Part shown: in pieces, positions 7,331 through 60,255 of the stretch
Layout: the number at the start of each line of letters is the position of its first letter
Numbering within the stretch: the first letter of the stretch is position 1
Source: Lingula anatina
Taxonomy: Eukaryota > Animalia > Brachiopoda
Assembly: GCA_051362555.1 (NCBI GenBank)
Contig: CM120642.1
Coordinates: 1,116,001 to 1,180,000, forward strand
Reading direction: 5' to 3'
DNA: 64,000 nucleotides
Notes under the pieces: model-generated
Databases searched by the model: none
Told to the model about the DNA's origin: nothing
The model's input: only the letters and a program-made list of their open reading frames with translations
Made by a program: the position numbers and the translations under genes

Positions 7331-7470
7331 TTAGCATGCTTGAGTACTGCTGGTACTAGACACCTTCCGTTCGCCAGCATTGGCCAACAACGCTGCTTTG
7401 TTACTAGCACGGCGTTCTGACACTCGGCTCATCTCCGTGCTTCTGAAACTCCACGTGAATGAGGAACGTC
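7331..7470 (-). CDS. CCKR: CCK-type receptor probable terminal coding exon 4 (Ser/Thr-rich C-tail)
   Basis: Acceptor catcttctgtgtttcag|GAC is in phase 1. Gives GRSSFTWSFRSTEMSRVSERRASNKAALLANAGERKVSSTSSTQAC-TAA; local GC rise. Total CDS 1407 nt, divisible by 3. Confidence 0.75.
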
Positions 7471-7573
7471 CTGAAACACAGAAGATGCAATGTTAAGTGA
7501 TTAACTACAACATCGACTATCCTGCAGCTCTCTTCACACTCAGATGTTTAGGATTTGAAGCTTGAATCACCTA

Positions 7574-7740
7574 GGCCCATTCAGAATAGGGGACTAACTA
7601 GTCCGAGAGTCAAATATGGCCTAGACCAACTTGAATACTTCCCCACTATTCTGTGTCTACTAGCGGATTAGACGGCAAGCTTTGTAGTGGGATGCAATAT
7701 TTGACCCTTGGATTAGTTGTTCCCCTAATCTGAATGGGCC
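7574..7740. mobile_element. MITE (PIF/Harbinger-Tourist-like)
   Basis: About 45-bp imperfect TIRs GGCCCATTCAGAATAGGGGACTAACTAGTCC...GGATTAGTTGTTCCCCTAATCTGAATGGGCC; flanks CTA/TTA resemble a TWA TSD. Confidence 0.8.
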
Positions 7741-8536
7741 TTATACACATCTACCCACCCAACACTGTTACATTAGACAATAAAAGTGTTGGCAAATATA
7801 AACCCACTGTATTGTGCTAATGGAGCAATTTGTCTGATGATTTCGTCCCGAATTTGTGCTCTTGGATTCACATCGGTCTCAATTAAAACTGTGTGTAAAC
7901 GAGCCTTCAGCTATAGAAGCCAATAAAACAACTACAACCAAAAGCTATCTAACAACGATTACTAGTTTTTGCTAACTAGAGAGGCGGTTCTTTTTTCAAA
8001 GCGTTGTGAACATTCTCCTTCTAATAAGCAGCGTAATAAAATAAATCTAAACTGGTTGATTTCACAGTTTTCTTGTTTTCTAGAGCCTACTGAAGCACAT
8101 AAGTTGGATTTGCCGAAAAATCTTTTTAACATTAAAATTGCAATTTTAACAATGAAATTTAGCTTGAAATGGTAGTTTTCTTTAAAATCTTAAAGCACAA
8201 AAATAAATAAATAAATAAATCAAAAGAGTGAAGTTTTACGTTGTTAACATTTTAGGTGCTTTTAAATATTCTTAAATAAGATGCATGTTAGAACGCACTT
8301 CTAATAACATGTAAATCAATAATCATCAATTTTGAATTATATTCAATCTTTATCATAACTTTTCTCCATAAATTTTAAGTTGTGTCTGATTGTTTGTGTG
8401 TGTGTGTTTGTGTGTGTGAAGACGCATTCGAGCAAGTGTGCTCATGTGTGGACGTTGTATTTCAGCGTTTGTACGTGTGTGTATATGTTAATATATATGT
8501 GTGTGGAGGGGCTGAAGTCCATAGCCGTGTACCTAC

Positions 8537-8980
8537 CTGTCGCTGGGGACCCGAAGTCACTATCTCTCCCGCGCTTCATCTGGGGCGGAAGTTTTGGCCG
8601 GATACAACGGAAAGCAGCCAGGAAGCTGTGTCTGAATTTTTTGTTCATGAAACAGTACGTTATAGGGTTACAGCAAGCAGACACATAGGAAAGCAGCTGT
8701 ATCAGCGACCAGCACACTGCCGTCAGGTGCTTGCGGGCGGAGGCCTTGTCGAAGTCAACCCAGGTATAGAGGGCGTACAGAGGTGTCCAGCAGATGAAGA
8801 ACTCGAGGACAATCACGAACAGCATTCGTATCACCCTTTTTTTCGCAGCGAGGCTTTTCTCGGCGTTACTCCGTCGCACTGCCGAATGCTCGAAATCCAT
8901 GCGTTTATGGGAACACGTGTTGCCGTTAGTCGTCACCTCGTCGTCTATGACGTCACGGTTACTGCCGAGCTGGCGAAGTT
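8537..8980 (-). CDS. CCKR: CCK-type receptor coding exon 3 (ICL3, TM6, TM7, helix 8)
   Basis: Acceptor ttttattctccag|AAC is in phase. Contains AKKRVIRMLFVIVLEFFICWTPLY and SACCNPITYCFMNKKFR, the CCK/sulfakinin receptor signatures. Donor ACAG|GTAGGT; 444 nt. Confidence 0.95.
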
Positions 8981-9414
8981 CTGGAGAATAAAACAGAAAA
9001 AGGAAACAGTTTTCTAGTTATTCTCTAATTTACCATAATTTTCTTGGTTTTAATCGTACATGTAACAATTTAGATACAGAAACAATTTTAAAGTTTTAAC
9101 TTTACGCTTTAAAAACGCTTTAAAAAGAATGAAAGAATGCTGTTGTATAAAATGTCGTGGCTTATATTATTAGGCTACCTCTAAATCGTGACACCAGGCA
9201 TCGATATGTTAGCAAAAAATGCTCTCACTTAAATATTGTTTTCAATTTCTATTTCTTCGTAACCAGATCCAGTTAGCCTTCTAACAGTTAGCCTTCTAAC
9301 TGTATCAAAACGCATTTTTCATACTTGGTGAGTAAGATCGGGTTTTTAAGTCCGGTCAGGGAGGCCTGAAACAGATGTTTACTTTGCTGTAAACATGAGT
9401 AAACTGTTCATTAC

Positions 9415-9786
9415 CTTGTTGTCCCTGCATCTCCATCTTAATCCCAATCCACAGCGTCCTAGCGATCAGTCCGTACGCCACCAACATCACCTCTAGGGGC
9501 AGCACCAGCAGCACCACGTCCAGGAACACCGTGTATGCCCTTCTCAGGTCGACCAATTCTCCCCAGTCCTCGTCACACTTGTGGTTCCCATTGGGCAGCG
9601 TCCAGTACTTGTGGACCACGGCGATAGGGATCATGATCACGAGGGCCGTGCTCCAGACGGCCGCTATGGTCTTGTAAGAGTGAGACAGCGTCTGCCAGCT
9701 CCGTGAGTGAAGCGGTCGGCAGATCGCGCAATAGCGTTCCAGAGAGATGGCAACGAGCGTGAAGACGCTGACGGCAGCGGAAACCG
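9415..9786 (-). CDS. CCKR: CCK-type receptor coding exon 2 (TM3-TM5)
   Basis: Acceptor ttgttttgtag|CGG restores the phase-1 codon GCG. Reads AVSAAVSVFTLVAISLERYCAICRPLHSRSWQT...AYGLIARTLWIGIKMEMQGQQ (ERY motif). Donor CAAG|GTAATG; 372 nt. Confidence 0.95.
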
Positions 9787-18169: not shown

Positions 18170-18620
18170 CTTGTAAGTAGCGTATCATAATACACATCAC
18201 CTCCCCGAATATAAAATCCCGCAGCAGCGTGGGGATGATGGTGACTGGCATACACAGGACAGCCAGGAGCAGGTCACTGATGGACAAATTTAACAGAAAC
18301 ATATTGGTCACTGTTCTCATCCGCTTGTTCTGGACCAGGGTAGCAATGACCAGGCCGTTGCCAACGACGCTGAGTAGAAAGATCAGGGAGTAAAGCGGAA
18401 TCAGGATCTCGCCGGGAATTTCGGAGGTTTCCGACCGAGTGAAGTTATAGGTTTCATTCCCGGTGTTGTCGGTGCCGTCCATCTCAACTGTCTGAGTGAC
18501 CGCTCCGTCAGGAAAGCTGAAGTCAACTAAGCTGTTTAAGGCGGCCACATGACTGCCGCTATAATTCCACGCCAAGTCCACGCCGTACGCTGATGTATTT
18601 TCGATCTTTTCAAATTCCAT
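18170..18620 (-). CDS. CCKR: Cholecystokinin/sulfakinin-type receptor (class A GPCR), coding exon 1 (N-terminus, TM1-TM2, start of TM3)
   Basis: ORF MEFEKIENTS...IPLYSLIFLLSVVGNGLVIATLVQNKRMRTVTNMFLLNLSISDLLLAVLCMPVT...YLQ carries the GN and RMRTVTNxFLxNLxxSD motifs typical of CCK receptors. N-glycosylation sequons NTS, NYS, NET, NFT. Donor CAAG|GTAAGT at 18170/18169; 451 nt, ends in phase 1. Confidence 0.95.
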
Positions 18621-21488: not shown

Positions 21489-22551
21489 CTTCAATATCTA
21501 TAGGTTTATTGGAGAGCAGGGAAGCTTTGCATCTAAAATGACGAATTTGAACGTATATTACCAAATTCTTGTTACTTTTGCTTGCATGACCGGTTTTGGT
21601 CAAGCAGCCAATCAAGTTCATCAGTGAGGCTGGACACGACTCTGTTTTTATTTCACGACTTCGACATCTACATGTAGTTGTTATCCATAATTCCTGTACT
21701 ATTCTGTGTGGAATGAAGCCGGCTAGCTGACAGTTCACTTACTAATATCACGTCTATCTTGAGATTAACGTGAATATAGCATTGATGTTACAACGGTTTC
21801 TGTTGAGTTACATGTGATAATTCATAATAAGACTACGGATCTTTAGAATCTGCTACCCTGAATTGTCTAAAAAATGCGTTTCCTTCATTCAACTAATGAC
21901 ACCCGAAGGTAGAGATACGGACACACATAAAAAGTATAGGAACGGAAAACCAGCGACCTGAAAATAATGCGATATGCATTCGCTACATAAAAAAGACGGT
22001 TCCTGTGAGCATTCCATGATAGGTTAAAAAAACATGATCATATCTTATATAATTTAGTAACATAAAAAATGTCTACAGATCTATCGAGTTCGTCTTTCAA
22101 TGCACCTCTACCGGGACTTGTGTATTACGTTTCTTGTAAATCCCGAATCAATTTCCGTTATGGTTGTATTTATTGTAACATACGCACACTTACGTGTGAT
22201 ATTTATTAGTCGTTTATTGTTCGGGGATCGATGTTTTCAACTCACGGGGGAAAATTGTCGAGACCCGTGCTTTTAATGTATGTAGTTAACGCACCCATAC
22301 CGGTAGGAGAAATTTCCTGGTTCTCTGTCGGATTTAACAGGGGCAGGGAAAGGGGCATGGATATTACAGAATACGAGGACTACACTACTGTATTATGTAG
22401 GGCACTTAAATGGAAAATTCCTTGATTCTGACTCTTTTTCGCTTGTGTTACTCTTTCAGGGGAGGAATAAGGGAGCAGCTCCGAAATTAAAGTGGAGGGG
22501 GGGACTGTGCCCTCCTGGGACTGCCATTGTGATATGGGGACGACATCTAGA

Positions 22552-22775
22552 CCCCATTCCCATAGATTTAAGATCGATCTATCCCTGTGGGGAGTCTCAA
22601 TAGATTACTGTCAGCTAAGCCGGCTTCACCGTCTGTCCCGCCTACTAAAAGCTGTAAGGGGGTAAATAACTATGGTGCGCGCTCGGCTGACTGCAATTTA
22701 GCGTGAACCCCCAGGGAGTTAGGTCGATCTAAATCTTAATCTCTGGATCGATCTAAATCTCTGGGAATGCACCCC
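22552..22775 (+). mobile_element. MITE family A, copy 1
   Basis: TIR ATTCCCATAGATTTAAGATCGATC...GATCGATCTAAATCTCTGGGAAT; internal sequence shared with 36141-36353. Confidence 0.8.

Positions 22776-41267: not shown

Positions 41268-41270
<3 letters not shown>

Positions 41271-41334
<64 letters not shown>
41271..41334. repeat. (TG)n microsatellite
   Basis: Seen directly. Confidence 0.95.
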
Positions 41335-41335
<1 letters not shown>

Positions 41336-43685: not shown

Positions 43686-44406
43686 TATTATATTTTGTTC
43701 TGTAAATTTTAGTATCAACATGCAGTGAAGAAACTGTACATGTAGAGTCATGTCACTGTAATGGCATAATTATCCTAAAGCATTCTCCTGAACCACAAGC
43801 AGAAACAGATCAATAAGAATTTGAAAAAACTCATTTGAAGTATGGATGTGTTTATCCCTGCTGTACATGTAAAACAACACAATTCTAGATATGACTAATG
43901 TTTGTTTTAGCTGTAAGGTGTATTAGACTGAAGTTAAGGGTTTCACATTACAGATTGTTATTTGTAAAGAATCTGCTTAAGAAAATACCTGATGGGGGAG
44001 GGGGGGGGGTTAAGACAGCACCTCCAGTTTTTTTGTTGTTATTTTAAGTTTCGGGCATTAAGTGATCAGTTCAAACATGGTGTAATATTTGAGTAGTTTT
44101 GTCATTATAATACAAACATTCATGCTCTCAAAAATCGAAATTTTTCCTTGTTGCATTATATAATTTAAGTGTACCAAAAGTAATGGAATGAAGATATGTT
44201 TAATGTTGGAATTTTTAAATAAATGATGTGTTAGAGTTTTGACTAATATTAATACATGCAATAATCTTTCAGAACTATGGTTGCTGTTTTTTATTGTAAG
44301 ATGTTGCTATAACTGTTAACACTAAGTATGGGGATTTTAGAAAATCTCTGTAAAAAAGGTCAGAATGGTAGTTTTAACGTCTAATTTGAATGTCTATTTC
44401 TTTCAG

Positions 44407-44481
44407 AGCAATTGGGATAAACGTATTGTGAAAAGTTTAAACAGCATGTGCACTGAGTTAGGAGTCCCTCTCGCAAGAAAG
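44407..44481 (+). CDS. TBC1D19: TBC1D19 coding exon 4
   Basis: tttctttcag|SNWDKRIVKSLNSMCTELGVPLARK|GTAGAG; near-identical to TBC1D19 WEKRILKSLNSMCTELSIPLARK; 75 nt. Confidence 0.95.
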
Positions 44482-44731
44482 GTAGAGAATTCTCATAGGA
44501 TACCGTCAGAAATATTTCCACAAGTTCTTTTGGGTAAACAAATAACATTAGAAATAGTTTTTGGGATACTGTAATAGTAGGCATTTTTTTAGTTCAAATA
44601 CCACGATACTTCGATTGATGTTGGGAGTACACAACAATTATTACTGAAACTAGATACTTTAAACCCAACAGCCATTTTCTGTTTGGATTAATTGATTACT
44701 TTAATTAAATAATATATTTATTTATTTGTAG

Positions 44732-44795
44732 AGAAGTGAGAAGGATCAAAAAGAAGTTATTGTACATTGGGGAGAGCTGGGGACAGCTGCTCCTG
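44732..44795 (+). CDS. TBC1D19: TBC1D19 coding exon 5
   Basis: tttgtag|RSEKDQKEVIVHWGELGTAAP, G|GTGAGT; 64 nt, phase 0->1. Confidence 0.9.
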
Positions 44796-45872
44796 GTGAG
44801 TTTTAACTTTGGATTTAATTTTTTTTCTGGTACTGATTCCCTTAAAACTAGGGTTGGTCTTGTTCATTAAACAACTTTAGCTAACCTAACTTTGATATTT
44901 GATGTATCTAAGTACAATCAATTGGAACAATAACATGTTTTGTGTTAATACAATCCTTTTCCTTTATTTCTTGAAACTTTTGAACGATATCTGGTCTTTA
45001 TACATTTGATATAGTTTACTGTATATTGGATAATGACATCTTGGGAATTTGCTTTGGTGGTTGTTTGAATTGCTAAACTAACTTTTTTTTACGCGGATTC
45101 TGTTATATCAGGGGTATTATGAACATTTACATAGTTTAGGTAATATGTGATATCCGAATCATGTGTGAAATGTGAAATTCAGAGATCTAATTTTGGTTAA
45201 AATATGCAGATGTTGTCAGCTGTTTTATGGGTAAGATGGGGTTTGAAAGAGATTGCAGTTATTTTTGGTTTCAAAGGCAGATTTCTGAAGTGTTTATGTA
45301 TTTGTGTATACTGATTTTTGATATTTATTTATTTTTACTTTTATATGTGTTCTGTTTTTATAAGGTCTCTTAATTGGTGAATAAGTGAAAACTTGCTGAT
45401 AATTTAATTTAATTAAATATCTATAATTGACAGTAGTAAGTGGTGTCATCCTAAAATATTTCATTGAAGGATATAATATGATTGAAATTATCATAATCTC
45501 AGCCACTGGGAATTTTAACACATACCTTTTATTAGTTTTTGATGCAGTGCTATCTGGGTGTGTCACTGTAATTAGTGTTTAAGACCATAATTTTGTTTTA
45601 TTAAAAAGCAGCTTCTTTTTCTATTTCACAAGTTCAAAGAGACCAGTGTGTTCTACTAGTTGTAATTAATTGAATCAGCAGTTTAGAAAGTGCATGTTTT
45701 GACAAAGCATCATCCATGAATAATTCCCAATATAGGTTAAAACCTAGGAGTTCATGTTTAGTATTGATCAAGGAGCAGTTCTAAGATGTATAAATCAAAG
45801 TAATGATTTTCCACCTCCTGTATCAACATAGTACAGTGTTATAAAAACAAGTTGATCTACTTTCACTTTCAG

Positions 45873-45969
45873 ATTTGAGTGCTTTCCGCCCAGTGTATGC
45901 CCCTAAAGATTTCCTGGAGGTGTTAGTGGGGCTGAGGAACCCTAATGCCCACAGCGGGGAGCCTAGCAG
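45873..45969 (+). CDS. TBC1D19: TBC1D19 coding exon 6
   Basis: actttcag|DLSAFRPVYAPKDFLEVLVGLRNPNAHSGEPS, AG|GTCAGT; conserved FRPVYAPKDFLEVL; 97 nt, phase 1->2. Confidence 0.95.
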
Positions 45970-47176
45970 GTCAGTTAGTGGTCACTTATTAGTGGTCAGC
46001 AGTGTTCTTGACCCTTTCACCATCAAGCAGTACACTTAACTGGACAGGTCCACTTTCACAGACTGACAGTTCCATATCCCGGCTACTACCTAAGATGCCC
46101 CCCCCCCAACTGTACATGGCCAAATGACCAAATAGTTAATTTCTGCCCAAACAGTAATCAGCAGACTTGCAAAAATCTTGTAAACTTTGTGAGCCAGTGA
46201 GAAGGTTTTACCAGCTGGTTCATGGATGACAGTTGCACCAAAAAGAGCCAACTCAACCTGTATGTAACCACGCCACACAGGTCACCACAGTGTCACAACC
46301 CTCAGTGCCAGGTTTCATATCCCCTGCATTTAAAATGGAGATTGATGTGTAAATGCCACATATAACAGTGCCACCCTTCAATTTCTCTATACACAAGGGT
46401 CTCTTTAGAAATCACTTTGTAAGTCAATCTCTATGACACTGCAGTGTCAGAATTCAGTTGTTGCCAAATGGAAGTAATGTGGATAGTTTTGGTTTCAACC
46501 CTTCCCTGGTAACTTTTACCATCAATGTTGAAATGACTCTGGTGTTTTTATTGGATTTGGTATCAGAAATATAATCCATCTTTTGGTGTATTTTTTATTA
46601 TTGGAATTTGATGGCATTCTGAAGGGTTATGGGAAGATGAGGAAATTGAGAGTTAGATTTTGTGGTAAATGTATAATTTCATGATTGTCTCAGAATTTGA
46701 TTATGTAGGAAATGTATTTTTTGGAAGGTTTTACATAAGTGCCTGTAGGGCTTCAAGCACAAATGATAAGACAAGGTCAGTTACTTAGTCTTTAGAAGTC
46801 ACTATAGTTTGATTGGATTCCCATTGTACAGGAGTCCAATGTTTTAGGTCAGACTCAGATAAAATTTATTTTAAAAGAATAATATAAAGATTCAAAAGAT
46901 TTATTCTTCATTTTATTTATAATTGGCTTCAATGTTTTGTAAAGCAGTACAAGCCACTAAGATTCCACATTAGATTACTAAGATTTTTTTATATCAAGAG
47001 ACATGACTTTTATCTTGGGAGTCTGTTTCTTGATACTAATGTGAGCTGTAGTCAATTTCACAACATTTTTTTCCAAAGATTTATCCCACAGATAGCCCAG
47101 TCACTCAGAAGAGATTGTCTTTGATTAAAATTGATTATCATTTCTTCAGTTTGTGATTAATGTTTTATTTTTTCAG

Positions 47177-47237
47177 TTTTTCCTCACTGTGGGGGATCAT
47201 CCAAGTTCCCCTTAGAATTAGGAGTATAATGGAACTG
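47177..47237 (+). CDS. TBC1D19: TBC1D19 coding exon 7
   Basis: tttttttcag|SFSSLWGIIQVPLRIRSIMEL|GTAAGT; conserved GxIQVPL; 61 nt, phase 2->0. Confidence 0.93.
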
Positions 47238-50200
47238 GTAAGTACACACTTAGGATGCTTTCCCCATAAAACTAGTCTTCTACCAAGATGGATAATTTTA
47301 TTGGGCACCTGCCCACAGTGTTTGAATTATCTCTTTCCTCTGTCAGTGAGGGAAATGTTTTCATGAACATTGGTTTGTTTGGCAGACATCTTCAGATGTT
47401 CTTCTCAAATTTTGATGAAATTACCAAGATAGACAATTATTCAGGAGGGAAAAAAGTAATTGCAATTTCTTATATTTTTAAAAAGATTTTTAGTGTCTTT
47501 TTTCGCTGGCAGTCTGCACTCTAGGGGTGTTCTCAAGTTATACATCTACCTGAAGCCAGGCAGCCACCTAGCTGTCTTTTGGATCCTCTCTTTCAAAGTT
47601 CTGGCTAAACTACTGATGTGAAGACACTCCCAGTTAAAGAAAGTTCTTCCCAAATACTTCAGAATAGAAATGTCCCTAGAAATGACCTGGTGTAAAAACA
47701 TGACAGGATTATTGCTTGAGATTATTGCTTATTGCTTGAGTTAATTCTGTGCAGCACAGAGAATACAATACCCATTATATATATATATATATATAATTAG
47801 TGTGGCTTGGAAATAATCCATTTGACCCCAGTGTGTGTGTATCTTGATGTTGTGTGGTGATATGGTGTACAGTTATATATCAGTATTACAATATCCATGC
47901 AGGAAATTAAACATATTTGACTTCTTGGGTTTCAGCAAAGCTTTTGATAGGTAATTGTTATATGTTGTTGTGTTGCCAGACAGTTTAAGGACTAGGAAAC
48001 AGAATTATGATGTTAAATTAATCATCCAGTTATATGAGATAAGCAATTTCAAAACTGTCAAACAGAATTTTGTAAAAGTTGTTGTTCATAAAAGATGCTT
48101 AGCAGGCATTAAATAACATGTGATATGATATAACAAGTGATATGAGGTGCTTTTCCTCAACTTTTCAGCCCCATTCATTTAAACTTATATAGCATGCTTT
48201 TATGTTTTTTTGTTGTTTTTTTTGTTTTTTTTTTGAATATACGTTATTTATTTGTATTCTGTTTTTAAAAGGATTTGATTTAATACAAAAGTAAAATTGG
48301 TATTGCTGAGTCTGCCTCTATGATGACCATGTAAAACATTTCATAAAGCTTAATCTCAAAATTTAATATAATTATTTTAAGTTTTATATTTTAAATTAAT
48401 AACCTAATGGCTCAAGAATGTCAGGCACAATTCATATAGTAAAGATGACAAATGACTACAAAATGAAAAATTTAAACTTGCCGAGAGTGCAGACTTTTAT
48501 TTAATTGATTGGTTGGTTGATTAAACAAATGATCACCAATGGAAGTTATCAAATTTCTGAAAGTTTTATCCAAATCCATCCATAACACTTTGAGTTGGGT
48601 TGTTCACAAACAAAACCAAGAAAGGCAATCAGTGAACCTCCGTGGAGATTAATGGAAATAAAACTGCAGGTTGGGATGACCCATGAGAACAACGCTGATG
48701 TCAAACGCATTAATGCATTTTGTATCGCTGACTTTGTTATCTAATAAGAGAAGCTGTAGGAAGCCCCAGTCCTATAATTGGAGTAAAGGGGAGAAAAAAT
48801 AACCTCCAGTTTTAGTTCACGCTTACTTTACCAAGTAATCAGAAAAGCTGATTGTTGTGGAAATATGCATATATATATTTAAAAAAAAACATAGAAATTA
48901 GACCAAAAAATTAGAAAATCTGACTAAGCTGAACTTCATTGAAAGCCATACTCTCATACTGCCACCTGTATCACACAACATATTGAATTAAATTTAAATA
49001 CGTAGATGCTGTAACAACTGCAACATAAAATGAAAATTATTTTATAAACAGTAAAATAATGCGAACTGTATTTTCATCAAACCTCTGCTTTAATTACAAA
49101 CCTAACACCTGCAAAGAAAAAAAAAGATGATAAGGAAAAACAAGAGCACATTAAGCCACACATACCTTTGGATCAGACAAAAACTGTCACCAGTGAATAA
49201 ATTTGTCCAACTATTTTCACATTGAAAGTCCCACCATTTCCCTAATCTGCGGTAATTTGTTTCATGGATCAGAGCACTTCCCACTGTGCTGGTTGTGGTT
49301 TGAACTGGTTGATTGTTTTACCCCTCGCAGCCTTTTATATCTTCATCTCTCCTGCATACGTCAGTTCTGATTACCACTCGGGTTTTGGTTACATGATTGG
49401 ATTTACCTATCCCTGTGGAAAAATCCCCTTGCAAGGCATAGTTTTCATCCGTATGTACGTGTGCAGGACCTGCCTCCGTTAGCTTGCAATCACAAATGTT
49501 GGCCTAGAACTTGAGCTTAGAAAAGAATTCCCATTAAAGAAGCAGCTTAAGTTAGCTATTTCATGGTACATTTGTATAATCTTGCAATAGATTTTTGTGC
49601 ACTTAGCAAAGTGGAGGCCGATCCTGCAGACAAGGTATTGGTTTTCTTCAGGCACGATTTGGAGTGAGGTTCAATTTTTAGAATTCTTAGAATTTTTTAT
49701 AATGGTCTTGCTTGATGTTTATATTTTGTATGTTGTGTTGGCCATGTTAAGTCTGATCATTTAGCACACGCTGCTATTTCATCCTGTAGCGTGTAATTAG
49801 ACTATTTGATGCACATTAAACAAGCAAGTTTCAGCATGGGGTAAAGCAATCATGTGCATGACACTTGTAAATACCTCACTGGAATGTTATCGAGTAATGG
49901 GCATGACACAAATTTTTTCGTAGAATTTTTGAAAACTTTTTTGCAACAAAGTGAATTCCCACACTGAGATAAGTTTTAAAAGTAGTTGAAGAGTTGTGTG
50001 TATTTCAGGGAATTTCTTTTTTTCCCCTGAAAACAGCGGAGTGAATTCTAGGTATTTCCTGCAAAAGACCTGTAACATTTTAAAAAGACATCTTTTAAAC
50101 GGTTTCCGGGAAGAAAGCAGCCAAATGTCAGATAGAACATAAATTACATAATACATTTCTTCAGGATAATCAGGAGGCAATGAGTTTAGTGAAACTAGAA

Positions 50201-52446
50201 AAGTAATAAATCTTAAGTGAATATGACATTTTGAGTAAGATTATTTTGATCATCACCCATAAGGCGTACTGTGTACATGAAGATCTCGGCTGATAATGTC
50301 GTAGAAATTCAGAAATACTATGTAGAGCATTTTCTCAGAAATTCTAGGATTTTTTCAATTATACCAGGTGAAACATTGCCCCCCCCCCCATCCCCATTCA
50401 AACCATGACATCAAGTATAATGAATTAACAATGTTATAAATATAAATATTAATTGTAATTATGTAATATTTTCAGCAACTTCTGAAGAACATCTTTTTGA
50501 ACATTTTGATAAACTATTTATGAATGTAATTAAATTTTATAATTTTGGTATAATTTCACATAATTTTAGAACATTTCCAAGCAGACCAAAGTGGATGAGT
50601 GTTCAGTGCCAGTGTAAATAACTTCAACTCATATCTTGGTATCAGTAAATCAGCCCTGCATAAAAACAATAACTATAGGTCATTTATTTGTTTGTTTATT
50701 TATTTGTTTACAATGCTATCATGTTATCTTTGAGGAATTTTGGGAAAAGAAAACCAAACATTCTTCCTCCAGACCTCACTGCCACTTTCTTCAAAACACC
50801 TCATTCTTTTGGACAGATATCTGAAAATGGGTTTGTTTATGGTTTTAATTTACTTACTGGATTACTGATTTCTTCCTAATCCTTCTTCATTACTAAGAAG
50901 TGTTCATTAATCACAGTCGCAATTAAACCATGAACTTGAAAGTAACGTGATAGATTCTCTTCTACTCTCAAAACTTTGAAAAAAAGTTAATTGCTTGGAC
51001 ACATGCTGTGCTGTAACAAGCTTGATTTCAGTCAACAACTTTGTGCCAAAGTTTATACAGTTTATTTTGATGCAGGTGTAATTGAAATAATTATAGTTTG
51101 CATATGCCTGTACTACTACGTACCTGTAGCAACATATATCTGACAAGAAAAATCAGCACCAATGTTAATCTTATATACCTGTTAGCTTTATGGAATTTTT
51201 GGGAGAAAACATTAAAGGTCTGATTTCTTTCCTTTCCTTGCCCTTTATAAACCAAAGACTCTTATTGCCATACAAGTCATAACAGTCCCTTCTTGAGGGA
51301 TGATATACAAATATCAGGTGAACGTATTTTAGGACATCTATTGTAGTGACCAACCCTATCAAATAAAGCTCCAACTGTTCATTTTCCTTCAGAGAAGAGC
51401 AGAAACACATCCATCAGATCTAGTATTCAGACAGAGCATCATGGCAGATAATGAGGGTTAGTGCTCTTTAACTTGGTGTGATTAGGACGACAAATTAAAA
51501 GATTCCAGGTTAATTGAGTTAATTGTAGAGATTAATTGAATTTGAATTGCAGTGGTGTTTGGAACATCATATCTCCTTGGCTGTAAATTAACACCCAATT
51601 TAGCCTCATTATTCACTGAGAGTGAGTGCTACCTGCTCTCTTCTGGAAGCTGGTATATCCCGTTACGTACCAATAGGGGGAGGAGAAGGGGAGGAGGAGA
51701 GAGGGGGGGGAGGCACTGGGGCATCTTCATCTTCGGCAATGTATTTGGCTGTTTTTCATGGGGAGAAATAATAGTCAGAAAATAATTAGTTTTAACTATT
51801 TTATCAGCGTTCCAACAGAGCTAAATTCAATGGTAACAGGAGTTTCAAGTCGACATTAATATTTCATGGTTTCCCTTAATGAACAAGTTTGGTGTTAGTG
51901 AACAACAATGACAACGTAGACAGTACATTGTGGATAAGACACAGTCCAGTCACTTCCTAACACTTCACTGTGATCCAAATGTTATTTATACAAACTGCTG
52001 ATTCTGATTTTGCCTGGCATAATCACTAAAAAAAAGAATAAAATTTAAAATGAGAGAGAAATAAGAAATCACCAACTTAAATGGTCACTTTAAAGGGCTT
52101 TACAGAATACAGATCTAGGTCCAGTCCTGTAGATAATATACTATTAGTCACTTTAGCTGATATCTACAAAACAACAGACAGGCCTGTGAGGAATTATTTT
52201 GTTAACTCATTTTGAGGAAAATATTCTACATCTATTAAAAATTTATGATCAGAACATCAAGTTTAAACAAGGTAATTCAGTAATCTATATAGCATTGTAT
52301 CTTGTCAGTGCATATAGTGAGAACTATAAAAGTTTGGTTGCATTCTTAACTTTTTAACTTGAGAGACTTCAACAATGGAGATTTGTTCTATAGTGAATTA
52401 AGCCTTAGAAATGTCTAGTCTAATTTGTATCTTTATTCCTAAGATA

Positions 52447-52690
52447 AGTGTATATTTCCTAATCTGATGTTATTGTTAAAATTTGTTTTTCATTCTAGAT
52501 AAATCAGTAAGCTTTGAACTGAAACATGAAACAGTCTAAAAATATATCACCACAAAAGTCCATAATTCACTCAGGTTTTACATTGATTTTCCTCTAAAAA
52601 AAGTGTATGATATTATTTCCTCTCATCTGGTGTTATTGTGAAAATTTGTTTTACATTCTGGATAAGTGAGGAAGCTCTGAGCTGAAACAC
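52447..52690 (+). repeat. Diverged tandem duplication (period about 164 bp)
   Basis: TCTG.TGTTATTGT.AAAATTTGTTTT.CATTCT.GATAA...CTGAAACA at about 52463 and about 52627. Confidence 0.75.
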
Positions 52691-53134
52691 CCATAAAATA
52701 AACTGCAACAAAACTACATAAATCACTAAAAGAGCATGTTCAAGTTGTGTTGATTATATGTGATAAATGTTGCTGCGCGTCTCGGATGTCAATTTTTATC
52801 CCATTTCTTCATAACTGGCTGACAACCCGCGAACATCTGGTAGCTCCACAGTACAAATCAATTACTGTGATTGCTCTTTGGCAGTAATCTCCGACCTTCT
52901 GAGGACAGACGATGTGTCTGTAGATAATATGTCCATCTTTTCCACAGTACTGAATAGCACTCAACCTTTGGGAAACTCACCTCTGAGAAACTCGTCCAAA
53001 CCGTTCCATTATGTTTTGAATGGCAAAATGGCATTTGAGTTTAAAATGTGTAAAAATGTGAACTATTTCTCAAACAGCAACATTTACATGTATTCTCTTT
53101 CTATGTCAGACATGCATGCACACACATGCACCTG

Positions 53135-53138
<4 letters not shown>

Positions 53139-53177
<39 letters not shown>
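53139..53177. repeat. (CA)n microsatellite
   Basis: Seen directly. Confidence 0.95.
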
Positions 53178-53179
<2 letters not shown>

Positions 53180-56100
53180 ATAGCAAACCTTTGTATTCTA
53201 AAATGCACTATTATCAGATGGATAGTTAAGAATGATGACCAGCATAAGCTGAACCCTGGAAAAAATTCAGTACTATTTCAACTTCCTGATTTCTTTTCGG
53301 AGTACGTAATTCTAAGCATTCAGCTTTATTTTTTGGAAAAAAACAATCAACCATTACTTTAATTCTCTCTGTTCCTCCAATGGTTAGTATATGAAGCACC
53401 CAAAGTTTCCCATTTTCTTTTACTATTACTATTGTGGCTACGTCAACATTGCCAGTGTATCCATACAACACACTGGCTGAATGTGATTAAAAATTGATTT
53501 GAAAAGGAAACAATTCCTCTTCCATCTATTATCCACATCAATTGTGTCCCTGTCCTGGTGTTTACTGTAGAAAATTGAGTTTAGCTTTGATGGATTAGAA
53601 ACAGCAGCAGGGCATTCAGTGTAAAGTAGAGTTTTTCTTGGTCACACATATGACTGATAAATTGAAGGGATGAGGGTTGAGGGGTGAAATAAATTGGGTC
53701 GAGGCTGTAAATTATTGGAGTTGGAGAAAGTAAAATAAGTAGGGGTTGGGGGGGGGGGTAGGATATTTGGGGATCTGGTAGAAAAAAAGGAAGGAATAGA
53801 ATAAGTGGGTGTTGAAGGTAGAATATATGGGGGGGGGGGAATAGAATTAGTGGGGGTGGTAGTGAAATAATATAATTGGGGGTAGGGGAGTAAAATAAGC
53901 ATGGTGGGAGTTAACCAAACACCTTCCTAAAATCCACACATCATCAATTCTTGTCATTTAGACTTTTCTGACCATGACCATATACTCACTACACTTTTAT
54001 TTTACAGAAATGTTCCCCCTGCCCTCTTACTTGAACTTATTAATCTAATGGCCTGCTCTCTCCTAGCTCCCACCAGGCCACGCCAGGAAGGTCAAACATG
54101 GATGACCCGCGCTAATTGGATTGAAATGACTCTGGGGTTTGCTAGAGTGTGATGAACTTCATTTCCAGTCTCAGCATCTGTGAGGTGAACCCATTCTATT
54201 GGATGATTTCACTGCACTGATCACTGATCACATTGCCCTGCTGGGTTCAGGCCTTGTCCAGTAGTAACCAGATTAGCTGTTTTGGATGAGATACTTGTTT
54301 GTTATTTATCCTTTCACGGTGATCCTTAAACCTTGTTTTGATGGGAAATTTATTTATGAACCAGAATATAAGGATGTATTTTTTTTTTCAGTATTATTTC
54401 TTTTATGAATATTTTTTAAACAGTTTGATTTTAGGATTCAGACATGCAAACACATCTGTAAGCAATATGTAGATTGTACCCTGTTCAGTGTTATGATGTT
54501 ATCAGCACGTTTTGTTTTTCAAATAACTGGGAATACTGTTTATTTATAGAAATGAATATTCAACTGTAAAATTTGGCATTGATTTTAAAATAAATATATT
54601 GCCATGTATATTTTGATTGAACTGCAAAGCCAAGCACTGTCTGTCATCCAGTAGACCCAGTTTTGAATCAAATTCCTCTCTGCTAAATAACACCCAACCT
54701 AATTTTTTCAAACTTGTTTTCATTGTCGTGAAATTAGATATGTTTGTAGAAAATACAAGTGTCAGCTTGTAAGGGATCTAAAAACAGCACATATTTAACC
54801 CTAAGGATCTTATAGACCCCCAGGCTCCAGCAACTAATTATTAATAAATTTGTTTTTACTGTAGCAATTATTTTTTGAATTAATCTATTTTAGTTCAAGG
54901 GGTAAAAGGTGGCCAGGGTGCGTGGAGAAGGAAAGGAGCGTGGCCGTCTCTGGAACAGAATGGTAGCAAAGATCCTAAAATATCAACTCTAGCGACCCGA
55001 GCATTTACTGCATGCTGCTTCAGATTGGTAGCTTGAACTGTGCGGTTTTAAGACGTCAGATTTAATTACCAGTCTAAAACTTTGATCAGTAGAAAAAAAT
55101 GTGGTTTTGGATCTAGCTACTGGCACCATGAAATTTCAGATTATTCAACATTGTCATGCTGTCAAAAACAGCCAAGTTGTATGTTGATTTGGTCAGTGTT
55201 TATTTTGTAGTGAAAAATGTAGTTTTATGGATTATTATCTTACACAGAGCATAGGATTGTATTGATTGTTTGCACTGTTAAGTTATGAAAATATGAATGT
55301 TTTTCTAATGAAAATTTAAAGATTACAGAAAAGTATTTTAATGATGAGCTTTTTCCCTTCTTTTTAGTTTAACACCTATTACTGGACTGAACTGTTCAGT
55401 TAAATCTCAGGTGACAAAAATGTGTGGAATAAAAAGAAAAATAATACTCTTTTTAAGCCAAATGTGATCCTATAACTTACCTTTAGTTGAAGTTGGCCAG
55501 CTTTTGCTTTCTTATCAGGAAGATGTGGGAGTGGTCTATCAGTGAGCCCTCAGTCAAGTTTTCAAAGAATAATTAGTAGGAGCTAATTAGCAGAAAACAT
55601 CCGAGTCTGCAAAACCGTCCAAAGAAAAACTCCGTCCTCAGCCAAATGTCTGTCTTTGTAACAGTTAATTCCTATTCTTCTCAGTCTCAAGAGAGAAACG
55701 ATGTGTTTATTAGGTGCAACAGCTTGGTTGAAAAAATCAAGGAATTTTAAAAAAAGAGAAAGAAAGAGGAAGCGTGATGCTTCACAGACATTTTGACGTC
55801 AGTTTTTTAGTTGATGCATTTGGTAATTGTTTGGTGTGAACCCACAGGGAACAGGACTGCCTCCACAGGGAACAGTTCTGGTGATAACATTGTCCACCTA
55901 TGTGTGCAATATCTATTATAGTTTCTCTTGTTTTTTCAAGCAATAAGTAGTCTTTCCCCCTTTCAGTAATATAGAGTTTTGTCACCTGTCCAGGGTTAAT
56001 GGTACTTTAAAAGTAAGGTTAGAAGCACTTTTTATTTGTAAATATATTAATTAGTCTGATGCTTTTCTTTTGTATAACTCATTTTAGTTTATGAAGGGGA

Positions 56101-57491
56101 AAGAATAATTTGATTATTTATCTAAGTCACAAGAAATGATTTGGAAAGAAAATTGCTATTGATCATAGGTTTTTTTTTTTCACATCAGGAAGGACATCTC
56201 TTAGAACAAAAACAATAATAAAAACATTAGAACTTTCTTTAGAGTGACAGCCAATCGCCTTAACATAGCTGCATGTAGAAAACCAATTTCAACTGAAAAC
56301 AGTAAAAACTGAAAATATTTTTTGTTAAACAAACAATCTCTGCTTTAAAGCCTTTCATGAATACGTGAATTTATAGCCAAAAAAAAAAAAAAAAAAAAAA
56401 AGCAGAATAAGAACTTCCTTGAATAATGATGAATGGCAATGAATAAAAAAAATTGATAAAGTTTTTATTGCAGATTCCATCCTTTTCTCCAAGTGGCTTT
56501 TGTTTGCGGTTTTCGGGTCTATTGTCATTGAACCTGTGGTTTCCATCTGGTTTGGTGGCCATGGTTTTTTTCTTGGCTTGGTTTGATTAAGTAAGGATAT
56601 GTATTGATTCACCCCAGGACCTGTTTGCTCTCACTGTTATTAGCTGCAGCACTGGTCTGGTTTTTCTTAAAGAAAGTTTAGACGAAGTGTGTTAAATCTG
56701 CAGTGAACTTAAGTTACACTGAGTCTCTGAATTTAGACAATTTTAAAATGCAACAATTATGCCACAATTGTAGGTAATACTGGTCTGTGCCTAGAATGAC
56801 TAAACAGTCACTTTTTCTACTACCAGTACTAGACCAGTAGGAAAATCCTTCATTCTTGATTTCTTTTTAAGTCTTTGATATTGGAATTAAATTTCAAATA
56901 TATTTCTTGTTTTAAGTTAAACATATGAGTGCTATGCATTGAAGAAATTAAGTAGAACAATATTGTTAAAATTATTAGTCTGTAACTTCAACGCATGCTT
57001 GTTCTGAACAATAACTCATTAAATAATATCATTATGATATTAAATAATATCATAATATCATGAAATAGATAAAATAAAATGAAATTTTAAAAAATGAAAT
57101 TAAGTGAAAAAAAACAAAATTAAATTTCAGTTTAGTTCATAGTCAACTCCTCAACATGTTGTGTAAACATTCCTTTATATCAGGAGCAAGAATTTGATTT
57201 CTGCCGTAATGGGCAGATGAGTGTAGATTTACGTTCTTTGTGTAGGTAGAAGGCAAAAGTCCCCAAGGAATTCTTTGATCTGGATGTTTTTTCAATAATG
57301 ACCGCTTGTTACTGACATGTTTGTACTCAGATAGTATGTAATTGGAACTTGATTCATGTGCAGAGAGTTACCTTCAACATACTGATTGATTACGGGACAA
57401 TTTCTTTGTTTGTTTTTGTTTATTTGTTACAAATTATTGATTACTTTTGTTTGATGATTTCAAGGTTCTTTTTACTTAGCACTAAACTATG

Positions 57492-57657
57492 CAGGCCCGT
57501 AGCCAGGGGGGGTTCGGGGGTTTCAAAAGAACCCCCCTTTTTTCTGTTAAAAGGTCCACTCTAGGTAAAATTTGACCTAGGTACATGGGGATTATATGGT
57601 AAAAGGTCCACTTTTCAGAAAAAGAACCCCCCTTTGAAATTGCTGGCTATGGGCCTG
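57492..57657 (+). mobile_element. MITE family B, intact copy
   Basis: TIR CAGGCCCGTAGCCAG...CTGGCTATGGGCCTG with a perfect 5-bp TSD CTATG on both sides. Confidence 0.9.
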
Positions 57658-57670
57658 CTATGCTTGCTTA

Positions 57671-57672
<2 letters not shown>

Positions 57673-57718
<46 letters not shown>
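57673..57718. repeat. (GT)n microsatellite
   Basis: Seen directly. Confidence 0.95.
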
Positions 57719-57722
<4 letters not shown>

Positions 57723-58382
57723 GAGAGAGAGGGGAGAGTAAATGTTGTTATTATGAGAAGTGTTTTTGTACATTGGGATCAAATAAAAATCAACATTTCT
57801 CTGGTCATCAAAAGAGAAGACATGCCATTCTGAATAACTTGATTGATATTACTTATCTGAATTTGATTGAAAGCCTAAAACATCCTTTGAAATTTATTGT
57901 ATAAAAAGATCATTCATGCCGGGTCAATTGCAAGTGACTTAAAGCGAAATGTCTGTTATTGAATTCCAGACAACATACTATCAGACTTTGTAAGACATTA
58001 TGATACGGAGCCAGTTTAAAGAGTATTTCTTTCATTCTTCTCATGACTTATACCCTGTTTTCCCAGCTTAGATGGATTGTATGACATGCTTTGTGTGCAT
58101 CAGAAACACTCCATTGCCATTGTTTTCAGGGTGCTTTTCAGGGTCATCAGGAAATGTCTAGTCTTCTTAGCTTCTTTGAAGTATATTTTGTCAGTGATCA
58201 GTACAAGCCAGTAGATTAGAAACTTAGAATTCTTAAATCTGTATAAAAATAATATTTTTTGATAGTTTAGCATGTAATATACCAAGGTGACAAAAAGAAA
58301 TAGTGTTGAAAATTCCAGGAAAAGTAAAGTTTTGTTGTATCAAAGTCCTGTTCTCATTCTGTGACTATTTTTGTGATTTCAG

Positions 58383-58494
58383 AGGCTCAGATTCAATGAA
58401 ATGTCCATCAACCAATGCCAAACTGGTGTTGATGATAACCCAGACATCCCTCCTGAACTCTTTGATAATGACAGATCAAAGTTGGCCAAGAAAG
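58383..58494 (+). CDS. TBC1D19: TBC1D19 coding exon 8
   Basis: gatttcag|RLRFNEMSINQCQTGVDDNPDIPPELFDNDRSKLAKK, G|GTAGGA; resembles QLGIDD...PPELFENE; 112 nt, after an 11.1-kb intron. Confidence 0.93.
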
Positions 58495-58651
58495 GTAGGA
58501 TGGATAAAAGCTTTTTTGTTTATTATGTAAAAGAGGAAATCCTACAAATTTCACCTGACTTCAAAGCTTGGTGAATTCCAATTTGATCAAACTATTAAAA
58601 TGGACTACAGGATATGCAAAATTGAATATTAATAAAAAAAAAAAAACATCT

Positions 58652-58806
58652 CGGGCCTGTAGCCAACAATTTCAAAATGGGGGTTCTTTTTCTGATTTCA
58701 TCCTTTATAATTGTGATCCAACTTGAGAAATGGCATGGAATCTAGGTAAAATTTTTGATTCAGAGGAAACCTATTCTGGTCAGAAGGGTGGTTCTTTTGA
58801 ACACCC
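58652..58806 (-). mobile_element. MITE family B, diverged inverted copy
   Basis: CGGGCCTGTAGCCAACAATTTCAAAATGGGGGTTCTTTTTCTGA is the reverse complement of the right end of the 57492 copy. Confidence 0.7.
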
Positions 58807-59988
58807 AAGACTTCTACTAAACTGTATCTTCAGTATGGCAATATTAAAATGTTTAGTTCGTGTCAGTGCACCCTGTTTTCTCAGCTTGGTAGGCTCCTCC
58901 TGTGTGATTTGCATTGTATGCATCAGAAACGCTCTATACCCATTGTTTTCAGGGTACCTGTCAATGTCAGTCAGGGAAAATTCCAGCCGTCTCAACTTTG
59001 ATTCTGGCTGACAGAAATCAAATTATCCGTCTCATCCCAGTATTATGAAAAGGAGACCAACTTTCTTCTTTAAGACCCAGAGGTTTTATGAATCTTCTCC
59101 TAACATGACATACACTATACGTACTGGTATTGCGTGCCTTAATGAAGCAGTATATTTGACCCATCTGTTGTGGTTTTGTGGGCAATACATAATAGCAAAG
59201 CACCACCATACAAGTTACCAGCTCTTTATACTTATACTAAGGACATGTGTTTTCAGCTTTAATTCTGTTTGTTATGCCTTGTTATAAGTATCCTTTTGGG
59301 TATTTTCAAGCCAAATCCTTCATCAAAATTTTCTCCTACACAAGAATCTATCTGACTGTGCACTTGGATTTGACATTTTTCTTCAATTTTAATTGAATAA
59401 TTTAACTTAACCCAAATTAAGTGCACAAATGTAGACCGCCAAGTTTCCTAAAGTTGCACCAGGAACTGTCAACATCGGGTACTTATATTTGAGGGGGGTT
59501 ATCATTTTGAGGTCTGAATTGAGACATATTTAATAATTATATAAGTAGCTTTTCAGGATATGTAGACATAGAATTATGACTTTTAGACTAGCACTATGCC
59601 TTTCAGTGGACCCACATATTATGATGAACAGCCTATAGCCCAACTTCAGCTAATTTATCAGCTACACCTGCCAAAATGCTAATTTGATGCAGATTTTTAA
59701 GAGAGAATTATTTCATGCAGATGAGGTCTGCAACAAATTAGTAAGAATCAGAAGATACTATACTCTTGAAAAGTTGAGGCAAATTTGTTGCTAATTTTCC
59801 CCTTTTTTGCAATCTCATGGAGACTATTTTCAGAATCCTGCAAATTGTATAGTTTGTGGCAAATTTGCATTGCATTTGCTGCAAAATTTTCATTTTGTGA
59901 AGGGTTGGTTTACTAATAATATAATCATATTCACAACTAAAACTTAAATTATCACCTTTGTAAGTATGGTACCTGTCTTTTAAGTTAT

Positions 59989-59991
<3 letters not shown>

Positions 59992-60048
<57 letters not shown>

Positions 60049-60057
60049 TGTGTGTGT
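59992..60057. repeat. (GT)n microsatellite
   Basis: Seen directly, shortly upstream of the exon 9 acceptor. Confidence 0.95.
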
Positions 60058-60142
60058 ACATTAAGAGGTTAATCAAATTTCTTATTTTCTTCATAATTAT
60101 AAAAAATATATTACCACAAGGTACTGTATTTGATATTTCCAG

Positions 60143-60255
60143 TGCTGAACAACAAGCATAGTCCGCTCAGTCAGGAGTTTCTGAAGAAAGGAGCGCCCCC
60201 TGGTGTCCGCGCTGAACTCTGGAAACAAACTCTGGGAGTGGATGTAGACCAAATA
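60143..60255 (+). CDS. TBC1D19: TBC1D19 coding exon 9 (start of TBC domain); gene continues beyond the window
   Basis: atttccag|VLNNKHSPLSQEFLKKGAPPGVRAELWKQTLGVDVDQI|GTAAGT; the GxPxxxRxxxW TBC-domain start motif; 113 nt. Confidence 0.93.
60192..60208 (-). promoter_or_regulatory. Exonic CTCF-like site
   Basis: Reverse complement GGACACCAGGGGGCGCT, one mismatch from GGCCACCAGGGGGCGCT; lies inside TBC1D19 exon 9. Confidence 0.4.

Follow-up and report, generated by a model that had tools for sequence, protein, structure and literature searches.

About 600 conserved ancestral microsyntenic pairs (CAMPs) have been catalogued (Irimia et al. 2012, PMC3514665). The pair described here, a cholecystokinin (CCK)/sulfakinin-type receptor gene and TBC1D19 in the brachiopod Lingula anatina, is a new example of this already known class. 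As in the CAMPs, two non-paralogous genes (a 7tm_1 GPCR and a TBC-family member) lie 5'-5' in slowly rearranging genomes; CAMPs show tight linkage in at least four major lineages, and the present pair is linked in five, namely the brachiopod and a metagenome contig of unfixed phylum (L027) by DNA, vertebrates by a published gene order, and hemichordates and an echinoderm by an accession proxy. The differences are that 'TBC1D', 'receptor' and 'GPCR' have no match in the main text of PMC3514665 (Supplemental Table S2 was not covered), and that brachiopods are not among the lineages named in its accessible part. Outside vertebrates the pair was not found in the literature, the supplementary catalogue table of PMC3514665 apart, and searches of the supplements of the Lingula and hemichordate genome papers gave no match, in files where the naming of the genes may differ.

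[quoted passage not shown] A survey of 49 genomes (PMC8851819), the blocks of which require three genes, classes SMIM20-RBPJ-TBC1D19-STIM2 (block 3522) as 'Vertebrata novel', CCKAR not being among the rows listed. A further parallel is the Isl-Scaper regulatory block, in which a gene of restricted expression has an ancient linkage to a broadly expressed, intron-rich neighbour (PMC3514665); in Lingula the candidate target is a peptide receptor and not a developmental transcription factor, its enhancers are putative, and comparison with L027 gave no conserved non-coding element.

As for the two genes themselves, the Lingula receptor has class A motifs like those of SK/CCK-type receptors such as human CCKAR/CCKBR, Crassostrea CCKR1/2, Asterias ArSK/CCKR and Drosophila SKR1/2 (PMC8428848). 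TBC1D19 belongs, as a subunit, to the tubulin poly-glutamylase complex, is needed for cilia and controls the entry of ARL13B and INPP5E into them (PMC13376646); it is thus more than a generic Rab-GAP, and its earlier description as a housekeeping bystander falls short in the first word, while the second survives as a candidate role. The weight of one more pair is limited: hundreds of ancestral pairs are known and the orthology of the receptors is already accepted.

The two genes and their shared upstream region in Lingula

The window, that is, the whole stretch of 64,000 nucleotides analysed, contains a receptor gene with four minus-strand coding exons, AG/GT at all junctions and a product of 468 aa with one terminal stop.

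18170 to 18620, minus strand: receptor coding exon 1, with the ATG at 18620; N-terminus to the start of TM3; phase-1 GT donor
9415 to 9786, minus strand: receptor coding exon 2, TM3 (ERY) to the end of TM5
8537 to 8980, minus strand: receptor coding exon 3, with ICL3, TM6 CWTP, TM7 NPITY and the proximal C-tail
7331 to 7470, minus strand: receptor coding exon 4, carrying the stop of the 468-aa form (7331 is the stop)
6264 to 6904, minus strand: alternative 3' exons (about 6854 to 6904 and 6264 to 6412) of isoforms X1, X2 and X4, placed by tblastn of the L. anatina isoforms

The protein shows 99.3% identity with its L. anatina counterpart (98% for coding exon 1 against the L. anatina cholecystokinin receptor); the genome is a brachiopod's, as the expectation of an invertebrate had it, and a chordate origin of the window was rejected. 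An internal donor in exon 4 yields the annotated isoforms X2/X3, and the annotated isoforms reach about 6264, which slightly corrects the earlier end at 7331. Pfam 7tm_1 matches all three of the large exons tested, and TM1 GN, TM2 LxxxD, TM3 E/DRY, TM6 CWxP and TM7 NPxxY each occur once. Among solved structures, CCKAR/CCKBR rank at the top, with 84 against 45 bits to the next family for one exon and 106 against 51 bits for exon 3, a clear lead over orexin, QRFP, NPFF and NPY receptors; the name of another receptor family does not appear among the 120 homologues listed of 347. In a quick tree (69 rows, no outgroup) the window sequence and the L. anatina protein come out as sisters, and no larger set is starred. 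The departure from the family lies in TM6, where Y and V align to the peptide contacts N333 and R336 of CCKAR, at positions which vary widely among 98 homologues. By its nearest relatives, both structures and named homologues, the gene is a CCK/sulfakinin-type receptor, as had been proposed; activation by a sulfated CCK/sulfakinin-type peptide is a prediction from the sequence.

On the opposite strand, the TBC1D19 model comprises nine coding exons between 40834 and 60255, with AG/GT junctions and 271 aa without a stop; its exons and start site are defined by homology and splice signals, not by RNA.

38950 to 39033, plus strand: predicted non-coding exon 1, from sequence and CpG profile; its 5' end is placed approximately and its GT donor lies at 39034
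40834 to 40929, plus strand: coding exon 1, with the likely start ATG, by homology
41663 to 41735, plus strand: coding exon 2, by splice signals and frame, within the aligned model
42172 to 42293, plus strand: coding exon 3, 122 bp, equal in length in L027
44407 to 44481, plus strand: coding exon 4, 75 bp, equal in length in L027
44732 to 44795, plus strand: coding exon 5, 64 bp, equal in length in L027
45873 to 45969, plus strand: coding exon 6, by homology
47177 to 47237, plus strand: coding exon 7, by homology
47238 to 58382, plus strand: intron of 11.1 kb, CpG o/e 0.27, the sole intron above 10 kb in the part within the window
58383 to 58494, plus strand: coding exon 8, by homology
60143 to 60255, plus strand: coding exon 9, the window's final one (60255 is its last base)

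The window takes in only the N-terminal half; the Rab-GAP TBC domain (residues 377-501 in Glandiceps TBC1D19, about 371-501 in relatives) is encoded further 3', past the window end. This half has 46% identity with Glandiceps TBC1D19 (residues 1-256, E 2e-75) and is collinear with all eight named TBC1D19 proteins compared (43-47% identity, about 250 residues). One 40-residue exon gave no homologue in a word-index search; a different exon found homologues with full HMMER. The span of more than 21 kb compares with an average of 6.7 kb for Lingula genes. CpG depletion sets in just past the predicted first exon (39033) and the gene body has an o/e of 0.21, against 0.92 over the receptor; no CpG-rich patch is found in the TBC1D19 introns, the highest 500-bp value beyond 40.5 kb being 0.49.

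The two genes are therefore head-to-head, receptor minus and TBC1D19 plus, which we take to be the orientation of CCKAR and TBC1D19 in vertebrates too. The start codons are 22.2 kb apart, and about 20.3 kb separate the receptor ATG from the predicted first exon of TBC1D19.

18621 to 38900, no strand: shared upstream region, about 20.3 kb; CpG o/e 0.90, three high-copy repeats, no gene found

The first-pass annotation, which had drawn divergent neighbours some 20 kb apart with no recognisable gene between them, is borne out in both models, and its ends at 7331 and 60255 are exact. Of 128 ORFs of at least 48 aa in the gap, two gave a Pfam match, both low-complexity runs below the curated cut-off, and RNA from three runs, sampled at about 6, 6 and 25%, reached real depth in the gap only on the three high-copy repeats; no GT-AG joint was seen among the 15 joints listed of 55, nor any spliced 5' UTR exon in the reads and joints listed. 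An intervening gene was rejected on these grounds, in a scan that could miss a gene of short exons and an RNA check made without a known expressed gene as positive control. A simple bidirectional promoter was also rejected, because the gap is about 20 kb, against a start-site spacing of less than 1 kb for such promoters. The first 7 kb of the window showed no third gene (0/34 ORFs with a Pfam match). Directly 5' of the receptor, one RNA run has a few reads at a depth of about 1, too thin for mapping the 5' UTR.

Occurrence in other animals and age of the pair

The independent metagenome contig L027 carries both genes head-to-head, with start codons 5.0 kb apart, a predicted TBC1D19 first exon that ends some 3.0 kb from the receptor ATG, and no Pfam match among the 42 ORFs of the gap. 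Its TBC1D19 is only 49% identical to that of Lingula, and the introns in its available part do not exceed 2.6 kb. The receptor is identical to Haliotis at 68 of 84 positions and to Glandiceps at 49 of 84, and a free tree of TBC1D19 gives a lophotrochozoan placement (99/96), while a grouping with deuterostomes was unrejected in the AU test (p 0.157); from the free tree and the receptor identity, L027 is probably a lophotrochozoan. It is the only one of 32 metagenome loci with TBC1D19 to show a receptor exon, and only L027, L022 and L015 include at least 5 kb upstream of the TBC1D19 start codon. The annelid-like L022 (9.4 kb upstream) and L015 (5.1 kb) have neither receptor nor Pfam match in stretches that are too short to mean loss.

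In the three ambulacrarians checked, two hemichordates and one starfish, the RefSeq accessions of receptor and TBC1D19 are consecutive: XP_077983708/707 in Glandiceps, on one contig, XP_006814715 and 716 in Saccoglossus, and XP_022079611 and 609/610 in Acanthaster. These are also the three invertebrates among the 120 matches listed of 375 in the TBC1D19 profile search. Consecutive numbers are a proxy for adjacency and do not give orientation, so that ambulacrarian adjacency is likely. In each of the four fish pairs looked up, the contigs of the two genes have the same length, one of the four being near-consecutive by accession; in Callorhinchus RBPJ and TBC1D19 have adjoining numbers, which leaves none for CCKAR between them.

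Taken with L027, hemichordates and starfish thus appear to keep the pair in lineages intermediate between brachiopod and vertebrate, and the adjacency was very probably inherited from the protostome-deuterostome ancestor. The ancestry proposed earlier is supported, and the term 'pan-bilaterian' overreaches, the lineages sampled including no ecdysozoan (arthropod or nematode) and no xenacoelomorph. The receptor-TBC1D19 core appears much older than the vertebrate block, which makes part of what the survey classes as a vertebrate novelty older than that class implies. The argument that adjacency supports the orthology of this receptor to vertebrate CCKRs is sound and brings little gain, since these receptors are already grouped by phylogeny and ligand tests (PMC8428848).

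Retention of the pair

Our preferred reading, to which we give about an even chance, joins this ancient inheritance to retention through the regulatory DNA of the receptor. Such DNA would lie scattered through the shared upstream region and reach as far as, and into, the 5' end of TBC1D19; a chromosome break that fell between the two genes, or only just within them, would then cost the receptor its enhancers or damage the TBC1D19 promoter, and selection against such breaks would keep the pair. CpG content suggests that TBC1D19 is gene-body-methylated and broadly expressed, and the receptor unmethylated and cell-type-restricted; as these patterns differ, a single shared expression programme is probably not involved. 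The target/bystander mechanism is plausible as a candidate. In its favour, the genes are head-to-head at the DNA level in two distant invertebrates, Lingula and L027, ancestral pairs most often have, and best keep, the 5'-5' orientation (PMC3514665), and long introns, of which TBC1D19 has one of 11.1 kb in Lingula, typify bystander genes. Against it, the targets of classical blocks are developmental regulators, not peptide receptors; in chicken, the CCKAR core promoter lies within 328 bp and expression-linked variants mostly within 1.6 kb (PMC9222909); the TBC1D19 introns are CpG-depleted and those of L027 short; and the goldfish loss mentioned above, like the extra receptor copies that cannot all adjoin one TBC1D19, weighs the same way. 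Moreover, what blastn of Lingula against L027 matched was coding exons, a microsatellite and a single stretch of 21 nt, and no conserved non-coding element, in a comparison that is weak since enhancers are rarely alignable at such a distance. The 21-nt match was rejected as probable chance (E 0.033, opposite strand, absent from the other 31 loci).

The same absence of conserved non-coding DNA would be expected if ancestral neighbours without any functional tie had simply stayed together because local shuffling is slow, an explanation which we hold unlikely but regard as a serious contender. All the lineages positive for the pair are generally regarded as slow-evolving, as this explanation asks of lineages that rearrange slowly. 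Loss of ancestral pairs follows general rearrangement rates (PMC3514665), and the wider neighbourhood of TBC1D19 is also old: in Acanthaster, Saccoglossus and Capitella alike, the rows listed for the published block 1670 link it to cyclic-nucleotide-binding genes. The explanation is harder to reconcile with a gap that offers a 20-kb target for breaks, and with a pair kept in some five phylum-level lineages despite differing flanks, RBPJ/STIM2 in vertebrates and cyclic-nucleotide-binding genes in invertebrates. Both genes may, again, be passengers of a constrained region whose true target is a third gene, for instance a delta-protocadherin on the PCDH7 side or RBPJ; the vertebrate block does extend to PCDH7 (PMC12069048), and in Capitella a protocadherin that bears the label PCDH11X falls in one block with TBC1D19. 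This is made improbable by the block 1670 rows listed, where no protocadherin accompanies TBC1D19 in Acanthaster or Saccoglossus, by the classing of RBPJ-TBC1D19-STIM2 as a vertebrate novelty (PMC8851819), and by the empty first 7 kb of the window.

Co-regulation, in which common upstream elements would drive both genes in one set of neurons or ciliated cells in which tubulin glutamylation comes together with peptide signalling, draws on the 5'-5' orientation, the requirement of TBC1D19 for tubulin poly-glutamylation and cilia (PMC13376646) and the short distance of about 3.0 kb in L027. The Lingula gap, far wider than the spacing of bidirectional promoters, and the opposite CpG patterns of the gene bodies leave it rather remote, and the paper on TBC1D19 (PMC13376646) has no occurrence of CCKAR in its main text. 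Least probable, and very unlikely, are independent origins or an artefact of assembly or accession numbering. Accession order is a proxy with the fish and Callorhinchus exceptions given above, and no single contig of another run spans the Lingula gap; against this, chance would make the two numbers consecutive in about 1 in 10,000 genomes by our own arithmetic (2 neighbours, about 20,000-30,000 proteins), they were so in 3/3, and the DNA of L027 directly shows the same orientation.

Returning to retention through receptor regulatory DNA, its strongest form, a regulatory block predating the protostome-deuterostome split, with a neuropeptide receptor of feeding control as target and its enhancers in and before TBC1D19 for more than 550 million years, is doubtful, if conceivable. 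Were the regulatory link real, this would be an ancient regulatory block centred on a physiological receptor, and would point to the DNA in which to test for conserved control of satiety signalling; the block would also mark, in each lineage, the receptor copy with the ancestral locus and expression programme (CCKAR, Saccoglossus SK/CCKR1). Independently of mechanism, the adjacency is a sequence-independent marker of the ancestral CCK/sulfakinin receptor locus. Extra receptor copies exist in molluscs and Saccoglossus, and CCKBR is a further copy in vertebrates; such copies cannot all adjoin a single TBC1D19, and the marker picks the one left in place, CCKAR in jawed vertebrates and SK/CCKR1 in Saccoglossus, and is applicable to the tandem molluscan copies. 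In Saccoglossus, the accession of SK/CCKR1 adjoins that of TBC1D19 and SK/CCKR2 is 11 numbers off.

The receptor and TBC1D19 genes of Lingula

The window consists of animal DNA with a GC content of 37%, whose CpG content drops sharply near 40 kb. The following features are distinguished in it:

down to about 6264, minus strand: extra 3' receptor exons of annotated isoforms
18620-18170, 9786-9415, 8980-8537 and 7470-7331, minus strand: receptor exons, with AG/GT ends
31913-32123, 43493-43642 and 61539-61776: tandem arrays with periods of 41, 81 and 67 bp, respectively
ending at 39033, plus strand: non-coding first exon of TBC1D19, predicted from a GT donor and the CpG transition
40834 to 60255, plus strand: nine TBC1D19 coding exons with in-frame joins, 271 residues, no stop

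The four joined receptor exons encode a class A GPCR of 468 residues. When exons 2 and 3 were queried separately against solved structures, CCKAR/CCKBR scored best (84 vs 45 and 106 vs 51 bits, the runners-up being other peptide receptors). With the cholecystokinin receptor of Lingula anatina, exon 1 shares 98% identity, no other receptor family being named among the best 120 of its 347 homologues, and the full model shares 99.3% over 458 residues; the genome is therefore that of a brachiopod, a protostome. Thus, neither a chordate genome nor evidence of a receptor from outside the CCK/sulfakinin clade, both regarded by the first-pass annotation as fatal to an ancient origin of the pair, was encountered. 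The orthology of SK/CCK receptors had already been established through phylogeny and ligand tests (PMC8428848). The annotation gives the receptor four or more different C-terminal tails, produced between 6264 and 7470 by alternative donors and 3' exons, which could affect desensitisation or trafficking.

As regards the plus strand, a 32-residue exon retrieved 20 relatives, and the names of 10 read TBC1D19 in five cases and 'hypothetical' in two, with three nameless. TBC1D19-type proteins aligned to the window with collinear exons, and the 271-residue model shows 43-47% identity to all eight named TBC1D19 proteins; the TBC domain lies past the end of the window. An ATG within the predicted first exon (39020-39033) represents either an upstream ORF or a five-residue in-frame extension via a rarer AAG acceptor. 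The introns hold 91%-identical copies (39461-39569 and 57507-57615) of an interspersed repeat rich in G/C runs.

The two genes are divergent, with 22.2 kb between start codons, and the head-to-head arrangement noticed at first, with no recognisable gene between, is real. Among 128 gap ORFs of at least 48 residues, two gave Pfam matches, both low-complexity and under the cut-off; in three RNA runs, partly read, real depth was restricted to three high-copy repeats, and none of the 15 joints listed out of 55 was of the GT-AG type. The gap looks free of genes, a short-exon gene silent in the sampled RNA being able to escape. A second individual's DNA covered 30/30 gap bins, but the listed pieces are no longer than 1.4 kb and do not confirm the long-range assembly.

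The gap includes two copies (22541-22778 and 36131-36358) of an element about 230 bp long that agree at 86% over 193 nt. This element has a very high copy number, its DNA depth exceeding the single-copy level thousands of times, and shows heavy RNA read-through originating elsewhere; its copies are joined by reads on opposite strands, as expected of a MITE-like element with inverted ends. Another interspersed high-copy element, about 1 kb long (33560-34550), gave no Pfam match and is transcribed elsewhere in the genome.

The pair in other animals

Scanning metagenome contigs for TBC1D19 gave 32 loci. One of these, L027, carries a CCK-receptor first exon (3690-4094, minus) head-to-head with six TBC1D19 coding exons (from 9070, plus), 5.0 kb from start codon to start codon, with Pfam matches in 0/42 intervening ORFs of at least 60 residues. 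Exon lengths of 122, 75 and 64 bp are common to both TBC1D19 genes; the protein identity of 49% and the GC content of 47% indicate a distant animal. At 84 receptor positions, L027 has the same residue as Haliotis in 68, Lingula in 62 and Glandiceps in 49; the tree puts its TBC1D19 apart from the deuterostomes (99/96), and an AU test does not reject the deuterostome side (p 0.157). Judged from sequence, L027 is probably a lophotrochozoan, perhaps a mollusc. No receptor was found upstream of TBC1D19 in L022 (9.4 kb) or L015 (5.1 kb), the only further loci with at least 5 kb upstream, both spans being shorter than the 22 kb of Lingula. A non-coding first exon is predicted for L027 too. In the related contigs L003-L023, the N-terminal half of TBC1D19 has lost most of its introns, about 95 and 105 codons forming single exons, versus six exons in Lingula and L027.

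RefSeq protein numbers commonly track gene order, and consecutive accessions were read as close neighbourhood, orientation not included. Among the best 120 of 375 TBC1D19 matches, which included three invertebrates, receptor and TBC1D19 were consecutive in 3/3 ambulacrarians with both accessions: Glandiceps (XP_077983708 and 707, one 27.5-Mb contig for both), Saccoglossus (XP_006814715 and 716) and Acanthaster (XP_022079611 and 609/610, within the run 598-614 on one scaffold), the two hemichordates not being independent. By our own arithmetic, chance would make the two accessions consecutive in about 1 in 10,000 genomes. As a control, four fish pairs had both genes on equal-sized contigs; accessions were near-consecutive in one (611/612 vs 614) and 31 apart in another, and two GenBank sets gave spacings of 163 and 668. 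The RBPJ and TBC1D19 accessions of Callorhinchus follow each other directly, leaving no number for CCKAR between them. The proxy therefore overlooks genuine neighbours and can pass over a gene.

Human CCKAR and TBC1D19 presumably share the divergent orientation. From fish to mammals, the order RBPJ, CCKAR, TBC1D19, STIM2, PCDH7 is reported as fixed, one duplicate block of goldfish having lost TBC1D19 (PMC12069048). The adjacency was very probably present in the protostome-deuterostome ancestor, since it is found in Lingula, in the probable lophotrochozoan L027, in hemichordates, in the echinoderm Acanthaster and in vertebrates, in a sampling without ecdysozoan, xenacoelomorph, or named mollusc or annelid assembly. 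The main inference of the first-pass annotation thus survives, and intermediate lineages, where absence would have told against it, appear to have the pair (L027 by DNA, the ambulacrarians by accession).

About 595 ancestral pairs of unrelated genes, mostly 5'-5', have been catalogued, and this one may be among them (PMC3514665). In a 49-genome survey of blocks made up of three genes or more, TBC1D19 occurs in at least seven entries, with no gene named CCKAR alongside among those listed, and the human SMIM20-RBPJ-TBC1D19-STIM2 block is classed as a vertebrate novelty (PMC8851819). Its block 1670 (supplement 4) joins Capitella TBC1D19 to a protocadherin labelled PCDH11X, echoing vertebrate TBC1D19-STIM2-PCDH7; these rows bear the label 'Capsaspora owczarzaki', an apparent table error. 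The pair was not found in the accessible supplements of PMC4595640 and PMC4729200. Literature naming both 'TBC1D19' and 'cholecystokinin' comprised vertebrate studies, and no description of the pair in animals other than vertebrates was found, subscription papers being outside the scope.

Possible reasons for its retention

The pair is a real feature, with a mechanism that is only putative. The CpG o/e amounts to 0.92 for the receptor, 0.90 for the gap and 0.21 for the TBC1D19 body; under invertebrate gene-body methylation, such a contrast is expected where a broadly expressed gene neighbours a restricted one. Constraint directed at the receptor as target, with TBC1D19 as bystander, would hold the pair together; to ancestry and such constraint jointly we assign a probability of about 0.5. 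The CpG contrast and a TBC1D19 intron of 11.1 kb fit this proposal, the mean Lingula gene size being 6.7 kb (PMC4595640). Against it count the fact that Lingula and L027 share no conserved non-coding DNA except a 21-nt match (E 0.033), the lack of a CpG-rich patch in the TBC1D19 introns, the short introns of L027, the compact chicken CCKAR promoter (PMC9222909) and the additional receptor copies of molluscs and Saccoglossus, which cannot all adjoin TBC1D19.

Neutral retention of the pair is a rather unlikely but serious alternative, and a block whose constraint serves a third gene is improbable. Co-regulation of both genes is less probable still: the opposed CpG levels and the 20-kb gap argue against a single shared promoter. 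TBC1D19 belongs, as an integral subunit, to the tubulin poly-glutamylase complex required for cilia (PMC13376646), so that the two genes may yet be co-regulated in neurons or ciliated cells. Convergence or artefact is highly improbable.

Finally, molluscan CCK receptors occur as two or three copies per contig (proteins P0040/P0096, P0044/P0087, P0093/P0111 and P0028/P0038/P0049), in Patella (consecutive accessions), Mizuhopecten (950-kb scaffold), Lottia and Liolophura, and look like local duplicates.
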